Shown here piece by piece: positions 20,902 through 28,373 of a stretch of 64,000 nucleotides of DNA. The notes under the pieces were generated by a model, which saw nothing but the letters and a program-made list of their open reading frames with translations, did not search any database and was not told where the DNA came from. The position numbers and the translations under genes were made by a program. The stretch comes from Patescibacteria group bacterium (GTDB lineage: Bacteria > Patescibacteriota > Patescibacteriia > UBA2591 > JAQUPP01): NCBI GenBank assembly GCA_028716665.1, contig JAQUPP010000001.1:555073-619072 (forward strand), read 5' to 3'. Each line of letters starts with the position of its first letter. Position 1 is the stretch's first letter.

Positions 20902-21041
20902 ACCAGGTAGTAGAAATTTGACTAATTAATATTAAATATTTTTTTAAACTTAGGCTAAGCGCCGAAATAGTAAGAATTTGATTTATTAATACCTATTTTT
21001 ACAGCCCACCTTAGTGGGCGGTCAAATTTTCACTACCTGGC
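20902..21041. repeat. MITE-like intergenic element copy A, about 140 bp, with 21 bp terminal inverted repeats ACCAGGTAGTAGAAATTTGAC / GTCAAATTTTCACTACCTGGC
   Basis: The inverted repeats are read directly. The same repeats bound a second element at 26213..26356. There is an internal hairpin 'gcccac ctta gtgggc'. Confidence 0.65.
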
Positions 21042-21186: not shown

Positions 21187-21888
21187 ATGAAAAACAAAAA
21201 TAAAATTGCCCGTTGGCAAGAAAAACCGGAGAAACCGCAAATAGCGGTGGATACAGTTATTTTTAATATCATTAATAATGATTTAAAAATTCTGTTAATC
21301 AAACGTGGATCGAAAACATTTAAAAATATGTGGGCCATACCCGGCGGCCGAGTTAATAAAAATGAACCGTTAGAGGAAGCGGCAAAAAGAGAGTTAGAAG
21401 AAGAAACCGGAGTGAAAGATGTTTATTTGGAACAGCTTTATACCTTCGGCGACCCTAAAAGAGATCCGAGAGGCAGGGTCATTTCTGTGGCTTATTTCGC
21501 TTTAATCGGCGAAGAACCGCGATTGAGGGCTGACACGGACGCTATAGACACAGACTGGTTTAGTGTTAAGAAATTGCCCCCATTGGCCTTTGACCATAAA
21601 AAAATTGTTAATTATGCTTTAAAACGTTTATCTTGGAAATTGGAATACACCAATATAGGCCGCAATCTTTTACCGAAAGTTTTTACTCTTTCGGAGTTAA
21701 GAGAAGTCTATGAAATTATTTTAGGCAAGAAAATTGATAAAAGAAATTTTCAGAAAAAAATATTATCCTTAAATCTCATTAAACCGGTGCATCAGTTAAA
21801 GAAAAATGTTTCTTACCGGCCGCCCAAGCTTTGGAAATTCATAACCGGTCAAAATGTGATCTTAGAAAAACGGGGATTGAATTTTTAA
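21187..21888 (+). CDS. nrtR: Nudix-domain transcriptional regulator of NAD metabolism (NrtR-like): N-terminal Nudix fold plus C-terminal winged-helix
   Basis: Nudix box 'GGRVNKNEPLEEAAKRELEEETGV'. About 100-aa C-terminal extension. The gene heads a pnuC-nadR operon. Confidence 0.55.
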   Translation: MKNKNKIARWQEKPEKPQIAVDTVIFNIINNDLKILLIKRGSKTFKNMWAIPGGRVNKNEPLEEAAKRELEEETGVKDVYLEQLYTFGDPKRDPRGRVISVAYFALIGEEPRLRADTDAIDTDWFSVKKLPPLAFDHKKIVNYALKRLSWKLEYTNIGRNLLPKVFTLSELREVYEIILGKKIDKRNFQKKILSLNLIKPVHQLKKNVSYRPPKLWKFITGQNVILEKRGLNF

Positions 21889-21910: not shown

Positions 21911-22585
21911 ATGCATAATTTTTTAAACATTAACAATATATTCTTCACATTTATCGGTTATCAGATGAGTTATTTGGAATTTTTCGGCACTATTTTTAAT
22001 TTATGGTGCGTTTATTTGGCGGCTAAAAATAAAATTTTAACTTGGCCTATCGGTATCGCGGGAATCATACTTTATCTTTTCCTTTTTTATCAAATTCAAC
22101 TGTATTCTGATTTTTTTGAACAAATCTACTTTTTAATTACAAGTTTTTACGGATGGTTTTTATGGCGAAAAATCATGTTAAAAAATAAGTCAGGCGAATC
22201 CAAACAACTGCAAATCAGCTATAATGTTCTTAAAAATAATATCATTGTTATAAGTTTAATAATTTTAGGAACAGCGTTAACTGGTTATTTCATGCAACAC
22301 ATACATCTTTATTTTCCCAAGATTTTCCCCGTGCAAGCATCATTTCCATTTTTAGATGCACTTACAACCGTAATGAGTTTTATTGCTCAATTTTTAATGG
22401 CAAAAAGAAAAATAGAATGTTGGTATCTTTGGATATTGGTGGATATCATCGGCATTGGCCTTTATTATATCAAAGGCGTTAAATTTATTTCTTTGGAATA
22501 TTTAATATTTCTTTGCCTGGCAATAAAAGGATTGGTTGATTGGCAAAAACAATATCATAATCAAATAATCAAGGGAAAAATATGA
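21911..22585 (+). CDS. pnuC: Nicotinamide riboside transporter PnuC-like membrane protein
   Basis: 224 aa with seven or eight TM segments and Trp-rich helices. Located between the nrtR-like gene and nadR. Confidence 0.5.
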   Translation: MHNFLNINNIFFTFIGYQMSYLEFFGTIFNLWCVYLAAKNKILTWPIGIAGIILYLFLFYQIQLYSDFFEQIYFLITSFYGWFLWRKIMLKNKSGESKQLQISYNVLKNNIIVISLIILGTALTGYFMQHIHLYFPKIFPVQASFPFLDALTTVMSFIAQFLMAKRKIECWYLWILVDIIGIGLYYIKGVKFISLEYLIFLCLAIKGLVDWQKQYHNQIIKGKI

Positions 22586-23613
22586 AAAATAATATCGCCG
22601 GTAAAAAAATAGGGAGCGGCCTGGTTTTCGGGAAATTCATGCCTCTGCACGAAGGTCATGTTTATTTATTGAATTTTGCCCTTAAATCATGCAATAAATT
22701 AACCATACTTGTCTGTTCGTTAAAAGACGAACCTATTCCGGGAGAGATAAGATTTTTATGGGTAAAACAATTATTTCCCAACGCAAACGTTATTCATCAT
22801 TATGCCGATATTCCGCAAGAGCCAAAAGAGGATCCTGATTTTTGGAATATTTGGAAAGAAAGTATCAAGAAACATTGCCCGGGAGAGGAATTCGACGCCT
22901 TGTTCGGTTCAGAAGATTATGGCTGGAAAATGGCCGAGACAATGGGAATTGAATATATTCCGGTAAATCGTCAAAGAGATTTGGTGCCGATTTCGGGCAC
23001 AACCATAAGAAAAAATCCGATAAAATATTGGAGATTTCTGCCTGAAATAACAAGACCTTATTTTGTAAAAAAAGTATGCATTGTTGGTCCGGAATCTACG
23101 GGAAAAACAACGCTTGTTAAAAAATTGGCAAAAAAATATAAAACTGTTTTTGTGGATGAATATGCCCGTCAATTATTGGATGAATATGTCAAGCATGCCG
23201 GTTATAAAGAAGGGGAGGTTCGTTATAAAGATATTTTCAATATTGCTCGCGGACAAATAGCAACGGAAGATTCTCAAGTTAAAAGAGCGAATAAAATACT
23301 TTTTTGCGACACGGATTTGAATACAACTGTTTTTTGGTCAAATTTTTATTTTAAAAAATGTCCTCAATGGATCAAGAAAGAAGCTGAAAATAGAATTTAT
23401 GACCTTTATTTATTGCTCGATATTGATGTTCCATGGGTAAAGGATCCTCAAAGGCCGATACCAAAAATAAACGAACGCAAGAAATACTTGAAATGGTGGC
23501 AAGAAGAATTAAAAAAACAAAAAAGACCGTACATTATAATTAAAGGAAACTGGGAAGAGAGACTTAAATTGGCCAATCAATCCATAAATAAATTATTTGT
23601 TAATTCTAAATAA
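22582..23613 (+). CDS. nadR: Bifunctional NMN adenylyltransferase / ribosylnicotinamide kinase (NadR-type, without HTH domain)
   Basis: 'GKFMPLHEGHVYLL' ((H/T)xGH nucleotidyltransferase motif) and 'GPESTGKTTLVKKL' (P-loop of the RNK domain). Confidence 0.8.
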   Translation: MKNNIAGKKIGSGLVFGKFMPLHEGHVYLLNFALKSCNKLTILVCSLKDEPIPGEIRFLWVKQLFPNANVIHHYADIPQEPKEDPDFWNIWKESIKKHCPGEEFDALFGSEDYGWKMAETMGIEYIPVNRQRDLVPISGTTIRKNPIKYWRFLPEITRPYFVKKVCIVGPESTGKTTLVKKLAKKYKTVFVDEYARQLLDEYVKHAGYKEGEVRYKDIFNIARGQIATEDSQVKRANKILFCDTDLNTTVFWSNFYFKKCPQWIKKEAENRIYDLYLLLDIDVPWVKDPQRPIPKINERKKYLKWWQEELKKQKRPYIIIKGNWEERLKLANQSINKLFVNSK

Positions 23614-23627
23614 TTTAAAAAATAAAT

Positions 23628-24491
23628 ATGCGAATTCAAACTTACAGCGTTTTAATAGGAAATCGTAAATGCAATGCTCGTTGTCCTTATTGTGTTTCCA
23701 AAATGACGCCGGCGCAAGGAGTTGATTCTAAAAAATCAAAAATAAATTGGAGAAATTTCAATATTGGCTGTCAATTTGCTCAAAATAACGAGGTTTCCAC
23801 CATTTTGCTTACCGGCAAAGGAGAACCGCTTTTATTTCCAAAAGAAATTACAGCTTTTTTGAAACACCTTAAACCTTACAAATTTCCTTTTATAGAGCTT
23901 CAAACTAACGGCATCCTCATTTTCCAAAAAAGAAATTTATACAAAAAATATCTGAAAGAATGGTATCAGCTTGGTTTAACAACTATTGCTATTTCCATAG
24001 TTCATTATAAAGATGAAAAAAATAAAATAATTTATCAGCCAGAAGGTTCTTATATGAAATTGGTTGATTTAATAAAAATTATTCATTCAGCAGGACTTTC
24101 AGTAAGATTTTCCTGTACGATGTTAAAAAATTTTATAGACAGCCCAACAGAAGTTAAAAAATTAGTTAATTTCGCCAAAGAAAACAAAGTGGAACAAATA
24201 TCCACAAGGTCGCTGGAAAAACCGATTAAAAGTGAAAATAAGGAAATTTCTCAATGGGTTGCCAAACATCAGATAAATGAAACCCAACTTAGAAATTATC
24301 TTAAGAATAATGCCGTTGAAGTGATGAAGCTGGTTCACGGGGCTACTGTTTATGATTTAGACGGTCAAAATATTTGTTTAACCAATGCTCTAACTTTAGA
24401 TCCATCTTCAGAGGAACTTAGACAATTAATATTTTTTCCGGACGGTCATTTAAGATATGACTGGCAATATCCGGGGGCTAACTTAATTTAA
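23628..24491 (+). CDS. Radical SAM enzyme of unknown specificity
   Basis: 'CNARCPYC' is a CX3CX2C cluster motif near the N-terminus. 287 aa with no SPASM extension. Confidence 0.65.
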   Translation: MRIQTYSVLIGNRKCNARCPYCVSKMTPAQGVDSKKSKINWRNFNIGCQFAQNNEVSTILLTGKGEPLLFPKEITAFLKHLKPYKFPFIELQTNGILIFQKRNLYKKYLKEWYQLGLTTIAISIVHYKDEKNKIIYQPEGSYMKLVDLIKIIHSAGLSVRFSCTMLKNFIDSPTEVKKLVNFAKENKVEQISTRSLEKPIKSENKEISQWVAKHQINETQLRNYLKNNAVEVMKLVHGATVYDLDGQNICLTNALTLDPSSEELRQLIFFPDGHLRYDWQYPGANLI

Positions 24492-24496
24492 TAAAT

Positions 24497-25450
24497 ATGA
24501 AAAAATTTAACGCCATTACCACTGTTTACAGTTATTATTTTCCCGAAATCAGAAAAATAATAACTGATTTAACCAAAAATTATCCTCATCAGATATTTCT
24601 TAAATCCATAGATCCCGGTTTGGACGATTTTCATTTTCCGATTATTGATCAATTTTTAAAATTTCAATCCGAGGCAATACCGCGTCTTAAAGATTTTGCT
24701 TTTAAATATCCGATCGGCGGCGCGGAAGAAGGAATACGCGAGATTTTAACCATGCTACAGAGTAAGGGGATTAAACAAATATATGTTTTAAAAGGGGACT
24801 ATGAAGGTTATCAGGCCGTAGCCGAGACGCGCAACATTAAAACGATTGAGGTTGATAAAAATACAGATCCGACAAAAATTAGAAAGGGTTATTGGTTTAT
24901 TTCCAATCCTTCGGCCTGCGACGGCAATATTTTATCCGATGAATTTATAAATAATATCTGTCAGGCCGGTCATAAAATTATTTATGATTTAACTTATCTC
25001 GGCATGACCGATTTGCACCATTTTGATATCAGTCATCCGAACATTATCGCTGTTCTTGTGTCTTTTAGTAAACCGTACGGATTATTTTACTATCGTTTGG
25101 GATTTGCTTTCAGTCGAATATCCATTCCGTCATTATATGGAAACAAGTGGTTTAAAAATATTTTATCGCTGTTGATTATACGGAGAATAATGGTAAAATT
25201 CAATTGTCGATATTTTTCTAAAAAATATAAACCCGTTCAGAAAAAAATCGTTAATGAAATTAATAAGCAGTTTGAATTGAATTTAAAACCAAGTGATGCC
25301 TTGCTTTTGGCTTATTTAAATAAAAAAGATGCAAAAAAACTTAATTCGCAGCAATTAAAATTAATTAAAAAATTTAAACGAGGCGATAATTATAGATTTT
25401 GCCTCACTCCTTATTACCAAGAGTATGAAAAAAATATGCGTTTTCATTAA
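24497..25450 (+). CDS. Hypothetical protein with weak PLP fold-type-I (aminotransferase-like) motif resemblance
   Basis: 'FISNPSACDGNIL' resembles NP.NPTG, and 'VSFSKPYGLFYYRLGFAFS' resembles SFSK..G..G.R.G with a PLP lysine. It is short (317 aa). Weak call. Confidence 0.3.
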   Translation: MKKFNAITTVYSYYFPEIRKIITDLTKNYPHQIFLKSIDPGLDDFHFPIIDQFLKFQSEAIPRLKDFAFKYPIGGAEEGIREILTMLQSKGIKQIYVLKGDYEGYQAVAETRNIKTIEVDKNTDPTKIRKGYWFISNPSACDGNILSDEFINNICQAGHKIIYDLTYLGMTDLHHFDISHPNIIAVLVSFSKPYGLFYYRLGFAFSRISIPSLYGNKWFKNILSLLIIRRIMVKFNCRYFSKKYKPVQKKIVNEINKQFELNLKPSDALLLAYLNKKDAKKLNSQQLKLIKKFKRGDNYRFCLTPYYQEYEKNMRFH

Positions 25451-26213
25451 AACAACCAAGCCCGGCGTGCGTCAAACGGCAAAAGAAATAGAAAAATATT
25501 TCAAAGAACGGAATTATCAGGTTTTTAATAAAATAAATTCATCAGTTTTAAAAAAGGGATTAGACTGGATTATGGTTCTTGGCGGAGACGGATCAATACT
25601 TCATACGGCTAATAAAGTGGCGATTCAGAAAGTTCCCTTAGTAGGCGTTAATTTTGGCTGCAAGGGTTATCTCTGCCGCATTTCAAAAGAACAATTATTA
25701 AAAAAAATGGAAGAGCTTCATCAAGGAAATTTTTCCGTTGATTCTTATACGCGAATTAAAGCGCGGATCACCAGAAAAAATAAAATTATCAAAGAAATAG
25801 ACGCGCTTAACGATATAGTGGTCGGTGGAATCAATCGGGTGGTTTGGTTAAAACTTAAAATTATTCATGGTAATCAAAGGAAATTAGCCAATGTCGTTGG
25901 CGATGGTATAATTTTTTCCACTCAAATAGGTTCAACTGCTTATAATCTTTATGCCGGCGGGCCGGTGCTTTTCAATGATTCTTTCAGCGTGGTTGCCTGC
26001 AACGCGTTCTTTGAATCTGATTATTTTTCGCCCAATACAAGAGCATTTGTCGCGCCAACCAGCGCTTCATTTGAAGTGATAACCTTGCGGAGCGGTCAGC
26101 ATTTGCCTTATGTTGTGGCCGACGGACAGAGAGACTATCGTCTTAATGAAGGCGATAAAGTGGTTATTTCAAAATCATTAATGACCACAAAATTAATAAA
26201 ATTCAAGGATTGA
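25425..26213 (+). CDS. nadK: NAD+ kinase
   Basis: 'WIMVLGGDGSILH' (GGDG) and 'DGIIFSTQIGSTAYNLYAGGPVL' (NAD kinase signature). Confidence 0.85.
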   Translation: MKKICVFIKTTKPGVRQTAKEIEKYFKERNYQVFNKINSSVLKKGLDWIMVLGGDGSILHTANKVAIQKVPLVGVNFGCKGYLCRISKEQLLKKMEELHQGNFSVDSYTRIKARITRKNKIIKEIDALNDIVVGGINRVVWLKLKIIHGNQRKLANVVGDGIIFSTQIGSTAYNLYAGGPVLFNDSFSVVACNAFFESDYFSPNTRAFVAPTSASFEVITLRSGQHLPYVVADGQRDYRLNEGDKVVISKSLMTTKLIKFKD

Positions 26214-26356
26214 CCAGGTAGTAGAATTTTGACTTATTTTTTTTAAGGGCGGTAAGAGGTAATTAATAAATTTTTAAGCTAATAAATTGATAAGTATATA
26301 TAAATAAAGAAATTAAATAAAAAATTAAAGGCCCTGTCAAAATTTCACTACCTGGT
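26213..26356. repeat. MITE-like intergenic element copy B: ACCAGGTAGTAGAATTTTGAC ... GTCAAAATTTCACTACCTGGT
   Basis: Same terminal inverted repeats as 20902..21041. It starts at the last base of the nadK stop codon. The AT-rich interior differs from copy A. Confidence 0.65.
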
Positions 26357-26413
26357 TGACAAATAGCAATTTTTTTGATATTATAATAATAATTTTGCAG
26401 CTCTTTACAATAT

Positions 26414-26441: not shown

Positions 26442-27656
26442 ATGGAACATATTATTAATTCATTGTTGGACCTGGATTATTACAAATTGACCATGGCCCA
26501 AGTATCTTGGAAATATTATCCTGAAGTTCCGGTACAGTATAGTTTTATAAATCGCACCGCTCGTGTGAATTTATCCGATTATATTTCCCTTGAAGTTTTA
26601 AAGTCGGAGTTTGACCATGTTAAAACGCTCAAATATCTTCCTGAAGAAATTGATTATCTGCGCGGTTTGAAAATTTTCGAAGAAGGTTTTTTAAATTTCT
26701 TAAACGGCGTAAGGTTGGACGGTATTTCTTTTCGCACTCAACCGAAATTTGAAATTGAAGTGGAAGGTAATTGGAGTGAACGAATTTTTTGGGAAACCAT
26801 AAAATTATGCATCGTTACAGAGTTGTATAATCGGGTTTTAGTAAAACGATCCGGCATGTCCATGGAAGAAGTTTGGAGAGAAGGAGAAAGGCGATTGGAT
26901 GAGAAAATTAGAATTATTCAAAAACATCCGGAAATTAAATTTATAGATTTCGGCACTCGGCGCAGATTCAGCAGAGATTGGCATGATTATGCTGCAAGGA
27001 AATTAAAAAATGAATTATCGCCGGAACAGTTTTTGGGAGTATCAAATGTTTACCTTGCCAAAAAATACGGTTTAGCCTCAAAAGGCACTTATGCTCATGA
27101 AAAAGACATGATTCTTTACGGAGTTTTCTATGACAGTAAAGATCCTGTCCGCGAGTCGCATAACAGGGTTATGGAAATATGGTGGGAAACATACGGTAAG
27201 GGATTATCAATTGCTTTGTCTGATACTTATGGCAGCGATTTCTTTCTTGAAAATTTTACATTAGAACAGGCTCAAAATTGGAATGGATTACGTCAAGATT
27301 CAGGTGATCCTTTTAGATGGGGCGAGAAAGTATTTGATTTTTATCTTAAAAAAACCATTAACCCCACCACTAAAACAGTTATTTTCAGTGACGGATTGGA
27401 CATTACAATGATGTTGAAATTATCAGGATATTTTCGGAATTGCTTCAATGTTTTGTTCGGTTGGGGTACGAATCTGACAAATGATTGCGGTTTTGAGGCG
27501 CTTTCCTTGGTTTCAAAGCCAACGTATTCTTGCGGTCACCCGGTAATTAAATTGAGTGATAATATCGCCAAAGCTACCGGAGATCTCAAAGAAATCGAAA
27601 GAGTTAAACGTATTCTCAGTTATACCAACGACTTTAACGAAACCTGTGTGTATTAA
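26442..27656 (+). CDS. pncB: Nicotinate phosphoribosyltransferase
   Basis: The N-terminal 'LLDLDYYKLTMAQV' is characteristic of NAPRTase. 404 aa. Confidence 0.75.
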   Translation: MEHIINSLLDLDYYKLTMAQVSWKYYPEVPVQYSFINRTARVNLSDYISLEVLKSEFDHVKTLKYLPEEIDYLRGLKIFEEGFLNFLNGVRLDGISFRTQPKFEIEVEGNWSERIFWETIKLCIVTELYNRVLVKRSGMSMEEVWREGERRLDEKIRIIQKHPEIKFIDFGTRRRFSRDWHDYAARKLKNELSPEQFLGVSNVYLAKKYGLASKGTYAHEKDMILYGVFYDSKDPVRESHNRVMEIWWETYGKGLSIALSDTYGSDFFLENFTLEQAQNWNGLRQDSGDPFRWGEKVFDFYLKKTINPTTKTVIFSDGLDITMMLKLSGYFRNCFNVLFGWGTNLTNDCGFEALSLVSKPTYSCGHPVIKLSDNIAKATGDLKEIERVKRILSYTNDFNETCVY

Positions 27657-27707: not shown

Positions 27708-28319
27708 GTGATTAAAATGAAAGGAAAGATTATCAGGATAAATTTGATAGTGGATGGGATTATTGGTTTTCTTGAAGAAGGTCCGCTTTTCAGTCCGAGA
27801 ACCAGAATAATTATTCCGCACATTGATGAGTATTTAAAAAAGGAATGGACCGAAGAGAGAAGACATAATCAAGAAACCATTTTTGTCGGAGATGCGCATG
27901 GTAAGAATGATCTGGAAAACAAAATATTCGGTGTTCATTGTCAAAAGGGAAGCAAGGAAGCTCAAATTATTCAAGAATTGCGTTGGTGCGCGGAAAATAG
28001 TTATAGCTCGGTTTATACTAAAAAAAGTCACAGCGCGCTTTTTGAAACAGGTTTATTGGATCATCTACAGGCGTATCATCCGTTTAACGCTCCGGTTCCG
28101 GAGAATATGGAAATAGTAATTATGGGAGCTTGGACTGACGTTTGTGTTTTGCACACAATAATTGACCTTGTGAGATACGGTTATAATAAAATTATTGTAT
28201 CAAAGGATTGTGTGGAAACCGGCGATTTACCTTGGCATCCGGGCGATGAAGTGCAAAAATGGGCGCTGGTTTATATAGAAAAAGTATTGGGCGCGAAAGT
28301 AGTAGACCATTTGGATTAA
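27708..28319 (+). CDS. pncA: Isochorismatase-family hydrolase, likely nicotinamidase
   Basis: 'MGAWTDVCVLHT' is the catalytic Cys context of the isochorismatase/nicotinamidase family. The gene lies downstream of pncB. Confidence 0.55.
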   Translation: MIKMKGKIIRINLIVDGIIGFLEEGPLFSPRTRIIIPHIDEYLKKEWTEERRHNQETIFVGDAHGKNDLENKIFGVHCQKGSKEAQIIQELRWCAENSYSSVYTKKSHSALFETGLLDHLQAYHPFNAPVPENMEIVIMGAWTDVCVLHTIIDLVRYGYNKIIVSKDCVETGDLPWHPGDEVQKWALVYIEKVLGAKVVDHLD

Positions 28320-28321
28320 AT

Positions 28322-28354
28322 AAAAAAGCCCTCTCAATAATCGAGAGGGCTTTT
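28322..28354. terminator. Bidirectional terminator between convergent pncA and lemA
   Basis: 'aaaaagccctctc aataatc gagagggcttttt'. Confidence 0.75.
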
Positions 28355-28373
28355 TAAATTATCCGAATATAAT

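Follow-up and report, generated by a model that had tools for sequence, protein, structure and literature searches.

The window analysed here, a 64,000-nucleotide (64-kb) stretch of DNA from a Patescibacteria group bacterium, contains between 21187 and 28319 a run of genes that all lie on the plus strand and that, as assigned with Pfam and NCBIfam, encode an NrtR-like regulator (Nudix plus winged-helix domain), the transporter PnuC, NadR (NMNAT plus RNK), a radical SAM protein (rSAM), a PLP-like protein, NadK, PncB and a PncA-like protein (Table 1). The original prediction had placed a 287-aa protein with the CNARCPYC motif and a 317-aa aminotransferase-like protein on this strand inside an NAD island, with nadK overlapping the second gene by 26 nt; the ORF listing and a direct reading of the DNA agree with it, the nadK ATG lying at 25425 and the stop codon of the PLP gene ending at 25450. 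The junctions around the pair are tight (14 nt from nadR to the rSAM gene, 5 nt from there to the PLP gene and -26 nt from the PLP gene to nadK), and we found no convincing internal terminator or promoter in the stretch from nrtR to nadK. A strong sigma70-like promoter match, with 11 of 12 promoter positions matched, is situated ahead of pncB, a hairpin terminator directly follows the pncA-like gene, and an Rfam scan of the operon yielded no significant match. The perfect palindrome in front of nrtR is the sole zero-mismatch site across the 64-kb window for the GT-N7-AC motif, the core of the NrtR operator (Rodionov 2008, PMC2330246). Based on this palindrome and on the tight same-strand spacing, we predict that the pair is part of an nrtR-pnuC-nadR-rSAM-PLP-nadK transcription unit behind an NrtR-type palindrome, the unit being a candidate member of an NrtR regulon.

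Table 1. Features of the NAD gene run, in window coordinates
Feature	Position	Strand	Remarks
Perfect 21-bp palindrome TTAATGTATAAATAACATTAA	21157..21177		10 nt upstream of nrtR ATG; candidate NrtR operator, GT-N7-AC core
NrtR-like regulator, Nudix + NrtR winged-helix domain	21187..21888	+	PF00293 1.3e-23, PF21906 1.5e-22; NF050029 1.5e-48, under its cut-off
PnuC nicotinamide riboside transporter	21911..22585	+	PF04973 2.6e-52; TIGR01528 103 bits vs. cut-off 42
NadR-type NMN adenylyltransferase / ribosylnicotinamide kinase, without HTH domain	22582..23613	+	TIGR01526 1.1e-82; AAA_28 3.4e-37
Radical SAM (rSAM) partner, 287 aa	23628..24491	+	ATG 23628, TAA 24489-24491; PF04055
Small fold-type-I PLP enzyme ("PLPl"), 317 aa (predicted)	24497..25450	+	ATG 24497, TAA 25448-25450; PF00155
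NAD kinase nadK	25425..26213	+	ATG 25425; 26-nt overlap with PLP gene, other frame
Sigma70-like promoter match	26356..26384		ahead of pncB
Nicotinate phosphoribosyltransferase PncB	26442..27656	+	NF003704 391 bits vs. cut-off 379
Isochorismatase-family protein, probable nicotinamidase PncA	27708..28319	+	PF00857 9.3e-17
Hairpin terminator	28323..28355		directly 3' of pncA-like gene

Profile searches placed a Pfam model above its cut-off on both proteins, PF04055 on the rSAM (44.5 bits, cut-off 29.5) and PF00155 on the PLP protein (22.8 bits, cut-off 19.7), and the radical SAM and PLP-like motifs that the original prediction had pointed out are backed by fold prediction, with AlphaFold models of pLDDT 85.2 and 90.5 matching MoaA/viperin and aminotransferases/CobD, respectively. 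The CX3CX2C motif of the rSAM (C15/C19/C22, in CNARCPYC at residues 15-22) is accompanied by GKGEP (GGE-type) and QTNG motifs and by a highly conserved C-terminus, RQLIFFPDGHLRYDWQ. Of 50 partner homologues, 48 have this cysteine motif, the exceptions being L015, where a contig edge cuts the gene, and L064. Outside of the motif, only C250 is conserved (at least 90%) in the rSAM family, with no Cys triad and no auxiliary-cluster cysteines, and we found neither a SPASM/twitch domain nor a peptide-binding domain. The family HMM score above threshold and the partial TIM-barrel fold place the protein in the radical SAM superfamily; as modelled, it has a single cluster and a fold like that of MoaA/viperin, and it is predicted to cleave SAM. 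MoaA (GTP 3',8-cyclase) and viperin (CTP dehydratase), its best fold matches, resemble it in size (viperin core) and are single polypeptides devoted to nucleotide-sugar radical chemistry, but identity to them is 12-20%, the RQLIFFPDGHLRYDWQ motif is unique to the rSAM, the genomic contexts differ, and the C-terminal second [4Fe-4S] site of MoaA, which has three Cys and binds GTP, is absent.

The PLP-like protein harbors ISNPSACDGN at residues 135-144 and SFSKPYGLFYYRLG at residues 189-202, the latter with the Schiff-base Lys192 in SFSK; together with Asp164, Tyr167, Asn137, Arg200 and Arg300, these PLP-site residues align with the motifs of HisC. Among 183 family members, K192, D164 and R200 are 100% conserved and Y167, S189 and S191 at least 98%, position 137 is N or Q, R300, at the position of the Arg386-type carboxylate/phosphate binder, is found in 174, and C302 in 165, no cysteine being invariant in the family. 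We therefore regard the protein, from its model, as a predicted fold-type-I enzyme of aminotransferase class I/II with a full set of PLP-binding residues, and PLP binding is predicted. Foldseek gave a probability of 1.0 to HisC, CobD, DapC, BacF and C-S lyases (TM 0.58-0.70), but TM-scores are equal for many class I aminotransferases, so the likeness to HisC/CobD may reflect small size alone. HisC and CobD (L-threonine-O-3-phosphate decarboxylase), both of which act on phosphorylated substrates, are the best sequence and fold matches, sharing a minimal fold-type-I body of ~320-350 aa and the same PLP residues; in contrast to them, the window enzyme (13-17% identity) has an apparently obligate partner protein, no his genes nearby and HMM scores about one tenth of the cut-offs (HisC TIGR01141, 33.5 vs. 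276.6; CobD TIGR01140, 23.1 vs. 290.6). Its family also has features of its own, comprising the N-terminal 60 residues (VYSY..PE.R, PH, DDFH) and an NKWFKN motif.

These likenesses bear on whether the pair simply consists of known enzymes, namely MoaA with a histidinol-phosphate aminotransferase or a CobD-type cobyric-acid decarboxylase, or an antiviral prokaryotic viperin. JGI labels, weak best HMM matches (MoaA, HisC, CobD and pVip) and similar folds all point that way, but we find such names barely credible, given that every HMM score falls far under its curated cut-off (for the rSAM, MoaA TIGR02666 63.8 vs. 284 and viperin NF038283 31 vs. 180), that the second cluster of MoaA is missing and that no Moco, histidine, cobalamin or defence genes lie nearby. 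With KamA (TIGR00238) likewise far below its cut-off, the identities MoaA, HisC, CobD, viperin and KamA are effectively refuted by the HMM cut-offs and the missing features. A phage or defence origin was rejected as well, as no relatives of the pair were found in viral contigs or plasmids and the PADLOC pVip match (32 bits) is generic and weak.

Both ORFs have hundreds of homologues each, at 50-65% identity from archaea to bacteria, and thus are not chance ORFs. In a survey of 65 unique loci (29 from DPANN, i.e. small-genome archaea, 7 from CPR and 29 from larger-genome bacteria), the PLP gene is adjoined by an rSAM gene in 51 and by a gene that we call c8 in 9, never by both, with a contig edge in 3 and neither partner in 2; the gaps between the PLP gene and its partner are mostly 0-50 nt. 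Depending on the lineage, the partner is a MoaA/viperin-like rSAM, a divergent radical SAM protein, c8, or a partner fused to the PLP enzyme. The unannotated c8 protein (~285 aa) carries an invariant H-[D/E]-x-x-H...E...E signature, which looks like a zincin-type hydrolase or another 2-His/carboxylate metal site, and it had no Pfam, NCBIfam, PADLOC or PDB sequence match, even at E≤10. Replacement of the radical SAM partner by this unrelated family is an observation that goes beyond the original prediction.

Fusions tell of the same partnerships: rSAM-PLP fusions were found in L042 (676 aa) and P0353, c8-PLP fusions in 11 cluster representatives, a NadD-like-PLP fusion in P0341 (TIGR00482 4e-12; BLASTP to a NadD 2e-7) and NUDT9_N after the PLP domain in P0338, in a NadD-like-PLP-NUDT9_N architecture, the NadD-like and NUDT9_N fusions occurring in unrelated lineages. 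Two long ORFs were discarded from this list: P0334 (4960 aa), in fact a read-through gene call across a whole NAD operon, and the 1381-aa ORF of L012, which we treated as an upstream open-frame artefact of GC-rich DNA. In L070 and L026, which have no rSAM, a sugar or hydroxy-acid dehydrogenase gene abuts the PLP gene, GFO_IDH_MocA in the former and 2-Hacid_dh in the latter. From this comparison of loci, the partner (rSAM, c8 or fused domain) appears obligate for the PLP enzyme, the pair being in all likelihood one conserved enzyme system.

Substitution of a radical SAM enzyme by an unrelated protein has precedents in ThiH/ThiO, HemN/HemF and anSME/FGE, and the rSAM/c8 swap resembles these in that the same slot beside a constant partner is filled; c8 may equally well be a hydrolase. 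Another reading is that the partner, whether rSAM or c8, has no small-molecule substrate at all: it could mature or activate the PLP protein, as happens to sulfatases through anSME and FGE and to PFL through PFL-AE, or else both proteins could contribute to a radical PLP rearrangement in one joint active site, like a lysine 2,3-aminomutase (LAM) split over two polypeptides. We deem either version improbable. The rSAM lacks the domains expected of a maturase, its best structural matches are small-molecule enzymes, the BlsE, BtrN and DesII structures also appearing in the fold search, and the PLP site is already complete, so no built-in cofactor is needed. As for a shared site, LAM binds PLP in a different fold, the KamA HMM scores 22.7 vs. 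a cut-off of 199, and the KamA family unites radical SAM and PLP in one polypeptide, whereas PLP is here assigned to a separate fold-type-I protein or domain.

Beyond the partner gene, NAD genes (nrtR, pncA/B, nadE, nadK, nadA/B/C, pnuC, nadR and Nudix) flank the PLP gene in 25 of the 29 DPANN and 5 of the 7 CPR loci, and also do so in a small number of gammaproteobacterial and acidobacterial loci; the pair is embedded in NAD "super-operons" in both the DPANN archaea and the CPR bacteria. Examples are NrtR-PLP-rSAM in a gammaproteobacterium (L044), NadC-NadA-NadB-PLP-rSAM (L053) and PncA-c8-PLP-NAPRT (L052). The original prediction had called for a check of neighbourhood conservation, with a lack of NAD synteny in all relatives as the outcome that would speak against it; the pair turned out to be syntenic with NAD genes over two domains of life. 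Its further claim, that no known NAD step uses a radical SAM protein plus a small PLP enzyme, agrees with NCBIfam, Pfam and the literature searched, and nothing that we found in curated families, solved structures or publications explains or describes the pair.

The richest operons hold every canonical step (NadA, NadB, NadC, NadD/NadM/NadR, NadE, NadK, PncA, PncB, PnuC, Nudix and ADP-ribosylglycohydrolase), which suggests that the pair adds a function rather than substituting for a known enzyme. Replacement of NadB was rejected because L001, L014, L023, L028, L034, L046 and L053 combine the pair with NadB or a DAO-type oxidase, as was replacement of NadA, NadC, NadD, NadE or NadK, each found together with the pair in several operons. 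Separately, c17 gave a weak BLASTP hint (E 0.03) of being a divergent nicotinamidase.

The original prediction had left a choice between a new NAD-related step and an unrelated pathway hitch-hiking in the operon. Hitch-hiking, in which a module of two genes serving a secondary metabolite or a different cofactor is carried in, or co-regulated with, NAD operons, would fit the ~24 of 29 larger-genome bacterial loci where the pair stands without any NAD neighbour, and would also fit its patchy distribution at 50-65% identity across domains, which suggests horizontal transfer of a self-contained module. Set against this are the DPANN and CPR counts above, with synteny recurring in many different gene orders and extending to Gammaproteobacteria and Acidobacteria, the mid-operon position of the pair with overlapping or 3-50-nt junctions, the fusions of the PLP domain to NadD-like and NUDT9_N domains, which favor the NAD-related option, and the neighbourhood survey, in which genes of no other pathway recurred beside the pair. 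We accordingly hold hitch-hiking to be quite unlikely and conclude that the pair very probably forms a dedicated enzyme of two components whose function is linked to NAD metabolism, with the ~24 loci lacking NAD neighbours counting against that link.

As to what this enzyme does, known radical SAM plus PLP aminotransferase pairs, namely BtrN/BtrS, DesII/DesI and BlsE/BlsH of amino-sugar and nucleoside antibiotic pathways, offer a model. By analogy with their logic, and with low confidence, we speculate that the window pair works on a pyridine-nucleotide-related substrate in the following way: 1) the rSAM would cleave SAM reductively to a 5'-deoxyadenosyl radical; 2) this radical would take a hydrogen from a carbinol carbon, probably of the ribose, of a phosphorylated or nucleotide intermediate of the NAD pathway, with NaMN/NMN, NaAD/NAD(P) or ADP-ribose as candidates, giving a keto (or deoxy-keto) intermediate; 3) the PLP enzyme would transaminate this intermediate in a HisC-like manner with glutamate as amino donor, the two proteins working as a complex. 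The antibiotic pairs differ in several respects: their PLP partner is of the DegT/sugar aminotransferase class, whereas the window enzyme is of the HisC-like class I/II; they reside in antibiotic clusters, whereas the genomic setting of the window pair is that of primary NAD metabolism in minimal genomes, and its rSAM has no auxiliary cluster; and here the rSAM and PLP parts can be fused and c8 can replace the rSAM.

We count partner pairing, fusions, NAD synteny, conserved PLP residues, dehydrogenase neighbours and operon structure in favor of this explanation, bearing in mind that the dehydrogenase genes in L070 and L026 may be coincidence. Against the oxidation model, basic residues that could hold a triphosphate are scarce among the conserved positions of the rSAM; BtrN/anSME-type dehydrogenases carry an auxiliary [4Fe-4S] cluster in a SPASM/twitch domain, which the rSAM lacks; and c8, given its zincin-like signature, does not readily suggest the same function as a radical dehydrogenase. 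In addition, we know of no amino-sugar pyridine nucleotide in core metabolism. Oxidation plus transamination on a nucleotide is thus a tentative and rather doubtful chemistry, and the explanation as a whole, which joins the NAD-tied two-component enzyme to that specific chemistry, is plausible while falling somewhat short of probable.

Alternatively, the pair may provide a route that makes the pyridine ring, or a precursor of the ring, independently of O2, where the PLP enzyme would bind aspartate or a decarboxylated (CobD-like) derivative and its partner would oxidise the PLP-bound intermediate, yielding an imine/enamine for NadA or nicotinate directly for NAPRT and bypassing NadB and/or NadC. 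Several loci are in keeping with such a route, given that NAPRT and PncA closely adjoin the pair in CPR and Acidobacteria (L026, L032, L052 and L043), that NadA lies beside it in L039, L051, L056 and L053, and that the flanks available for L027, L037, L039, L048, L051 and L056 contain NadA but neither NadB nor NadC, although the seemingly absent genes may sit elsewhere in those genomes. The PLP enzyme, moreover, has kept Arg300, which is of the alpha-carboxylate type, and is similar to the decarboxylase CobD, and the NadD-like-PLP fusion would place it one step from NaMN formation, NadD acting downstream. Conversely, complete sets of NadA, NadB (or DAO) and NadC share an operon with the pair in L023, L034, L046 and L053, no NadA, NadB or NadC was found across the 64-kb window, ring synthesis by two enzymes is unprecedented, and there is no third gene that is conserved alongside the pair. 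On balance, we consider this route unlikely.

Fold-type-I PLP enzymes have been seen in NAD operons before, B. subtilis nifS-nadBCA being one such case of a desulfurase-NAD operon. Cysteine desulfurase genes of the NifS/SufS type occur in nrtR-nadABC operons as well as in nadBCA operons (Rodionov 2008, PMC2330246). This precedent differs from the pair in that NifS/SufS are class V enzymes with a catalytic cysteine loop that serve Fe-S assembly of NadA, whereas the window PLP enzyme is of class I/II and, unlike them, is found in operons without NadA and with the non-Fe-S partner c8. We rejected a role as cysteine desulfurase for NadA, since the class of the enzyme does not fit, its family lacks an invariant Cys and NadA is absent from the window. 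Another possible precedent, and the only lead to emerge from the literature searched, is nrtX-nrtY, a function-unassigned gene pair regulated by NrtR in Streptomyces, Frankia, Proteus and Hahella (Rodionov 2008, PMC2330246). Compared by description only, it is likewise a two-gene unit with predicted NrtR control, as in the gammaproteobacterial NrtR-PLP-rSAM locus; none of the relatives that we found comes from these four genera, so nrtX-nrtY are probably different genes.

In prokaryotes, the synthesis and salvage of NAD are considered to be mapped almost completely. A strongly conserved pair amid NAD operons that hold every known step implies that a reaction, a cosubstrate supply or a variant of the cofactor is missing from the picture of NAD metabolism in DPANN and CPR, ultra-small and mostly uncultured organisms whose host dependence has often been argued from "incomplete" cofactor pathways. 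It also corrects the database names "MoaA" and [quoted passage not shown], and it brings out a new orphan family, c8, for which there is a clear functional anchor. The Rosetta-stone fusions (rSAM-PLP, c8-PLP, NadD-PLP and PLP-NUDT9_N) make the question testable with a single polypeptide. We see the balance as about even for a broader proposal, that the pair is the catalytic core of an undescribed and first radical-SAM-dependent reaction of NAD metabolism, widespread in DPANN and CPR and spread horizontally to other phyla, which would either yield a pyridine or pyridine-nucleotide precursor without O2 or make or recycle a modified pyridine nucleotide or ADP-ribose derivative, with c8 replacing the rSAM in some lineages. 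In either form, we take the pair as a sign of a step in NAD metabolism that has yet to be described.

The original prediction had placed an unexplained same-strand pair between nadR and nadK, a 287-aa radical SAM gene encoding CNARCPYC and a 317-aa gene with aminotransferase-like motifs; both were recovered at these positions in the ORF table and by direct reading of the junctions, the latter also confirming the 26-nt overlap of nadK with the second gene. CNARCPYC occupies residues 15-22 of the radical SAM protein (rSAM), the second protein (the PLP enzyme) contains ISNPSACDGN and SFSKPYGLFYYRLG, and the rSAM stop lies 5 nt from the start of the PLP gene. A perfect 21-bp palindrome, positioned 10 nt 5' of nrtR and harboring GT-N7-AC, the core motif of operators bound by NrtR (Rodionov 2008, PMC2330246), is a candidate regulatory site; no convincing internal terminator was found from nrtR through nadK, and pncB is preceded by a strong promoter-like site, with pncA followed by a hairpin. 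In protein comparisons, the window matched a Patescibacteria MAG with 100% identity. We also noticed a 20-nt motif, CCAGGTAGTRRAAWTTTGAC, with exactly four copies in the 64-kb window vs. 0.02 expected by chance, arranged as two convergent pairs with non-conserved spacers of ~95 nt that flank the nrtR to nadK block, with one pair 5' of nrtR and a second separating nadK from the pncB promoter. This motif had no match in Rfam and could be a protein-binding site, a recombination site or MITE-like ends.

The rSAM protein has a canonical radical SAM site, scoring above the radical SAM Pfam threshold and showing CX3CX2C, GKGEP and QTNG motifs as well as a striking, invariant C-terminus, RQLIFFPDGHLRYDW, in an alignment of 28 homologues; as this alignment contains no further conserved cysteine set, the protein is taken to lack an auxiliary cluster. 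The PLP protein is barely above the PF00155 threshold, with weak HisC and CobD matches, but its predicted structure (pLDDT 90.5) matched HisC, CobD and many class I/II aminotransferases with probability 1.0, thus upholding the predicted PLP fold. Together with the invariance of D164, K192 and R200 among 183 family members (with Y71, G75, Y102, Y167, S189, S191, W218 and R300 at least 95% conserved), these matches identify a genuine fold-type-I PLP enzyme with a complete PLP site, in which K192 is the Schiff-base lysine. The N-terminal ~60 residues and an NKWFKN motif are unique. Residue 141 is Cys in the window and Arg in 90% of close homologues (NPSARDG to NPSACDG); the wider family has R here in ~50% of members and I, L or V in ~45%, so the position is probably not catalytic. 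No close solved structure was found for either protein, nor does NCBIfam release 20 or Pfam hold a specific model for them, and source databases call them 'radical SAM protein', 'hypothetical protein', 'MoaA' or 'aminotransferase class I/II-fold'. It is extremely improbable that the pair is MoaA and a HisC/CobD-like enzyme, as such names imply, or that it includes an antiviral viperin, since the proteins do not qualify as members of these families, with rSAM reaching only 10-25% of the NCBIfam cut-offs for MoaA, viperin, NrdG, QueE, KamA and others.

Each protein has hundreds of homologues at 50-65% identity, all from uncultured organisms known through metagenome-assembled or single-cell genomes, comprising Patescibacteria, Woese-, Nano-, Pace-, Nanohalo- and Aenigmatarchaeota, Elusimicrobiota, WOR-1, Chloroflexota, Planctomycetota, Myxococcota, Acidobacteriota and Gammaproteobacteria; none was found in viral contigs or plasmids. 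We sampled 63 loci from species-representative genomes plus six around individual proteins (three distinct genomic places), labelling genes via phmmer, tblastn and clustering. Among the 65 unique loci, rSAM directly adjoins the PLP gene on the same strand in 51, and c8, an unannotated family unrelated to rSAM, is adjacent in nine, with the two partners together in none; three loci are truncated at a contig end, and two, one from Elusimicrobiota and one a 30%-identity outlier, have neither. The partner precedes the PLP gene in 49 loci and follows it in 11. In WOR-1 and Polyangiaceae, the rSAM partner is very divergent with the PLP enzyme still conserved, and in larger-genome bacteria the pair is usually alone as a self-contained two-gene module. 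An Obscuribacterales locus (L042) encodes a 676-aa rSAM-linker-PLP fusion and P0353 is a second. The pair is a two-component enzyme that is sometimes a single chain. We consider it improbable that the partner is a maturase, or that the two proteins form a split aminomutase-like shared active site.

The c8 family (~285 aa, about 93 homologues, all unnamed, P0241-P0333 among them) had no match in Pfam, NCBIfam, PADLOC or PDB sequences. In c8-bearing loci the rSAM gene is missing and c8 is always beside or fused to the PLP enzyme. Searching 1.84 billion cluster representatives exhaustively with HMMER yielded 669 relatives; in 11 of the representatives (658-877 aa) the PLP domain is preceded by a c8-like N-terminal domain, detected by a profile of stand-alone c8 only (E 4e-5 to 1e-14). 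Residues F60, R70, Y73, H85, H89, E114 and E122 are invariant in both forms, giving an H-[D/E]-x-x-H...E...E signature that suggests a metal site, either zincin-like or of another 2-His/carboxylate type. One fusion, P0466 (877 aa), adds a pterin-4a-carbinolamine dehydratase as a third domain; its contig is Legionella-like (ankyrin, Sel1, TcdA/TcdB-type glycosyltransferase, zeta toxin), and there are about ten other c8-PLP fusion clusters.

The pair is tied to NAD and ADP-ribose enzymes both genomically and architecturally. NAD genes occur within the available flanks in 25/29 loci of small-genome archaea (DPANN) and 5/7 of the candidate phyla radiation (CPR), showing that the pair is syntenic with NAD genes in relatives; they also occur in L044 (NrtR-PLP-rSAM), L053 (NadC-NadA-NadB-PLP-rSAM) and L052 and L043 (PncA-c8-PLP-NAPRT). 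DPANN super-operons gather NrtR, NAPRT, PncA, NadE, NadK, NadA, NadB or a DAO-type oxidase, NadC, NadM/NadD/NadR, PnuC, Nudix ADPR pyrophosphatases, ADP-ribosylglycohydrolase, nucleoside hydrolase and a deoxyribosyltransferase-like protein. Since each canonical NAD step is found with the pair in some locus, the pair is not a simple substitute for a known enzyme. In P0341, the PLP domain is fused to a NadD-like nicotinate-nucleotide adenylyltransferase domain; the neighbors of this gene are a YqeK-like HD gene on one side and, on the other, a GFO/IDH/MocA sugar-dehydrogenase-like gene that overlaps it. In P0338, a NUDT9_N (ADP-ribose pyrophosphatase-type) domain follows the PLP domain, the region 5' of the latter resembling, by eye and w/o HMM confirmation, a NadD-like domain. 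Of the two possibilities raised originally, synteny and these fusions favor an NAD-related role over hitch-hiking; an unrelated module merely co-localised with NAD genes is thus quite unlikely, and the pair is very probably a dedicated NAD-linked two-component enzyme. Our full-text literature search found nothing tying radical SAM or such PLP enzymes to NrtR/NAD operons. NrtR is described as regulating nrtX-nrtY, two genes of unknown function in Streptomyces, Frankia, Proteus and Hahella (Rodionov 2008, PMC2330246), but to judge by genus distribution identity with our pair is unlikely, as our searches returned no homologue from these genera.

Several other features of these operons deserve mention. 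A single gene call (P0334, 4960 aa) covering PLP enzyme, methyltransferase, Nudix, isochorismatase and NAPRT across a whole NAD operon was rejected as a giant fusion; it presumably arose as an artefact of gene calling, perhaps because the organism has recoded a stop codon. The NAD operons of L027, L037, L039, L048, L051 and L056 gather most other NAD genes and have nadA w/o nadB/nadC within the flanks at hand (up to ±10 kb); nadB and nadC are either located elsewhere, or these archaea/CPR bacteria have a non-canonical de novo branch. Recurrent in DPANN/CPR NAD operons is a ~519-aa protein (L048; also L014, L032, L050, L056) with a class I SAM methyltransferase domain per Pfam and NCBIfam and, by eye w/o HMM confirmation, an N-terminal nucleotidyltransferase-like PGRHH motif, as is a separate ~310-aa methyltransferase (L026, L027, L037, L041, L051). 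The ~279-aa c17 family (L031; also L014, L041, L056), between the pair and nadE, had no match in Pfam or NCBIfam and is only weakly like the N-terminus of isochorismatase-type PncA (BLASTP, E 0.03). In L039 (Patescibacteria), a SufB/D Fe-S assembly gene directly 5' of nadA-PLP-rSAM is reminiscent of the sufS/nifS genes that Actinobacteria and Bacillus carry in their nad operons.

Coordinates of features in the window and in related loci (L-numbers)
Feature	Location	Coordinates	Strand	Evidence
CCAGGTAGTRRAAWTTTGAC copy	window	20903-20922	+	
CCAGGTAGTRRAAWTTTGAC copy	window	21021-21040	-	
NrtR-type Nudix/winged-helix regulator	window	21187-21888	+	Pfam, NCBIfam
PnuC	window	21911-22585	+	Pfam, NCBIfam
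NadR, NMNAT + kinase domains	window	22582-23613	+	Pfam, NCBIfam
rSAM gene, 287 aa	window	23628-24491	+	ORF table, direct junction reading
PLP enzyme gene, 317 aa	window	24497-25450	+	ORF table, direct junction reading
PLP enzyme residue 141	window	24917-24919		
NadK	window	25425-26213	+	Pfam, NCBIfam
CCAGGTAGTRRAAWTTTGAC copy	window	26214-26233	+	
CCAGGTAGTRRAAWTTTGAC copy	window	26336-26355	-	
PncB	window	26442-27656	+	Pfam, NCBIfam
Isochorismatase-family protein, probable PncA	window	27708-28319	+	Pfam, NCBIfam
c8 gene	L046	8845-9702		
c8 gene	L052	890-1744		
c8 gene	L016	9141-10004		
c8 gene	L026	2900-3790		
P0466 triple fusion	L071	8001-10634		
~519-aa protein	L048	13455-15014	-	
~310-aa methyltransferase	L026	2-931		
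c17 gene	L031	3366-4205		
SufB/D gene	L039	457-1878		

As to the reaction, the nearest structural relatives of rSAM are viperin, MoaA and BlsE, which abstract hydrogen from nucleotide/nucleoside sugars, and those of the PLP enzyme, HisC and CobD, handle phosphorylated substrates; in addition, sugar or hydroxy-acid dehydrogenase genes sometimes adjoin the PLP gene where rSAM is not present (L070, L026). Considering these relatives, the NadD-like/NUDT9_N fusions and the adjoining dehydrogenases, we surmise, tentatively, that rSAM may use NAD-independent radical chemistry to oxidise or dehydrate a carbinol in a phosphorylated/nucleotide NAD-pathway intermediate, and that the PLP enzyme would then transaminate the product. 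This model, which we infer to be the most economical, shares the logic of BtrN/BtrS, DesII/DesI and BlsE/BlsH. An O2-independent route from aspartate to a ring precursor, to which adjacency to NAPRT, PncA and NadA and the six loci having NadA w/o NadB or NadC would lend some weight, seems doubtful given that the pair co-occurs with full NadABC sets and that NadA is absent in the window. Pairs of radical SAM and PLP enzymes were already known; their NAD setting is new and unexpected, and c8 constitutes a new orphan partner family.
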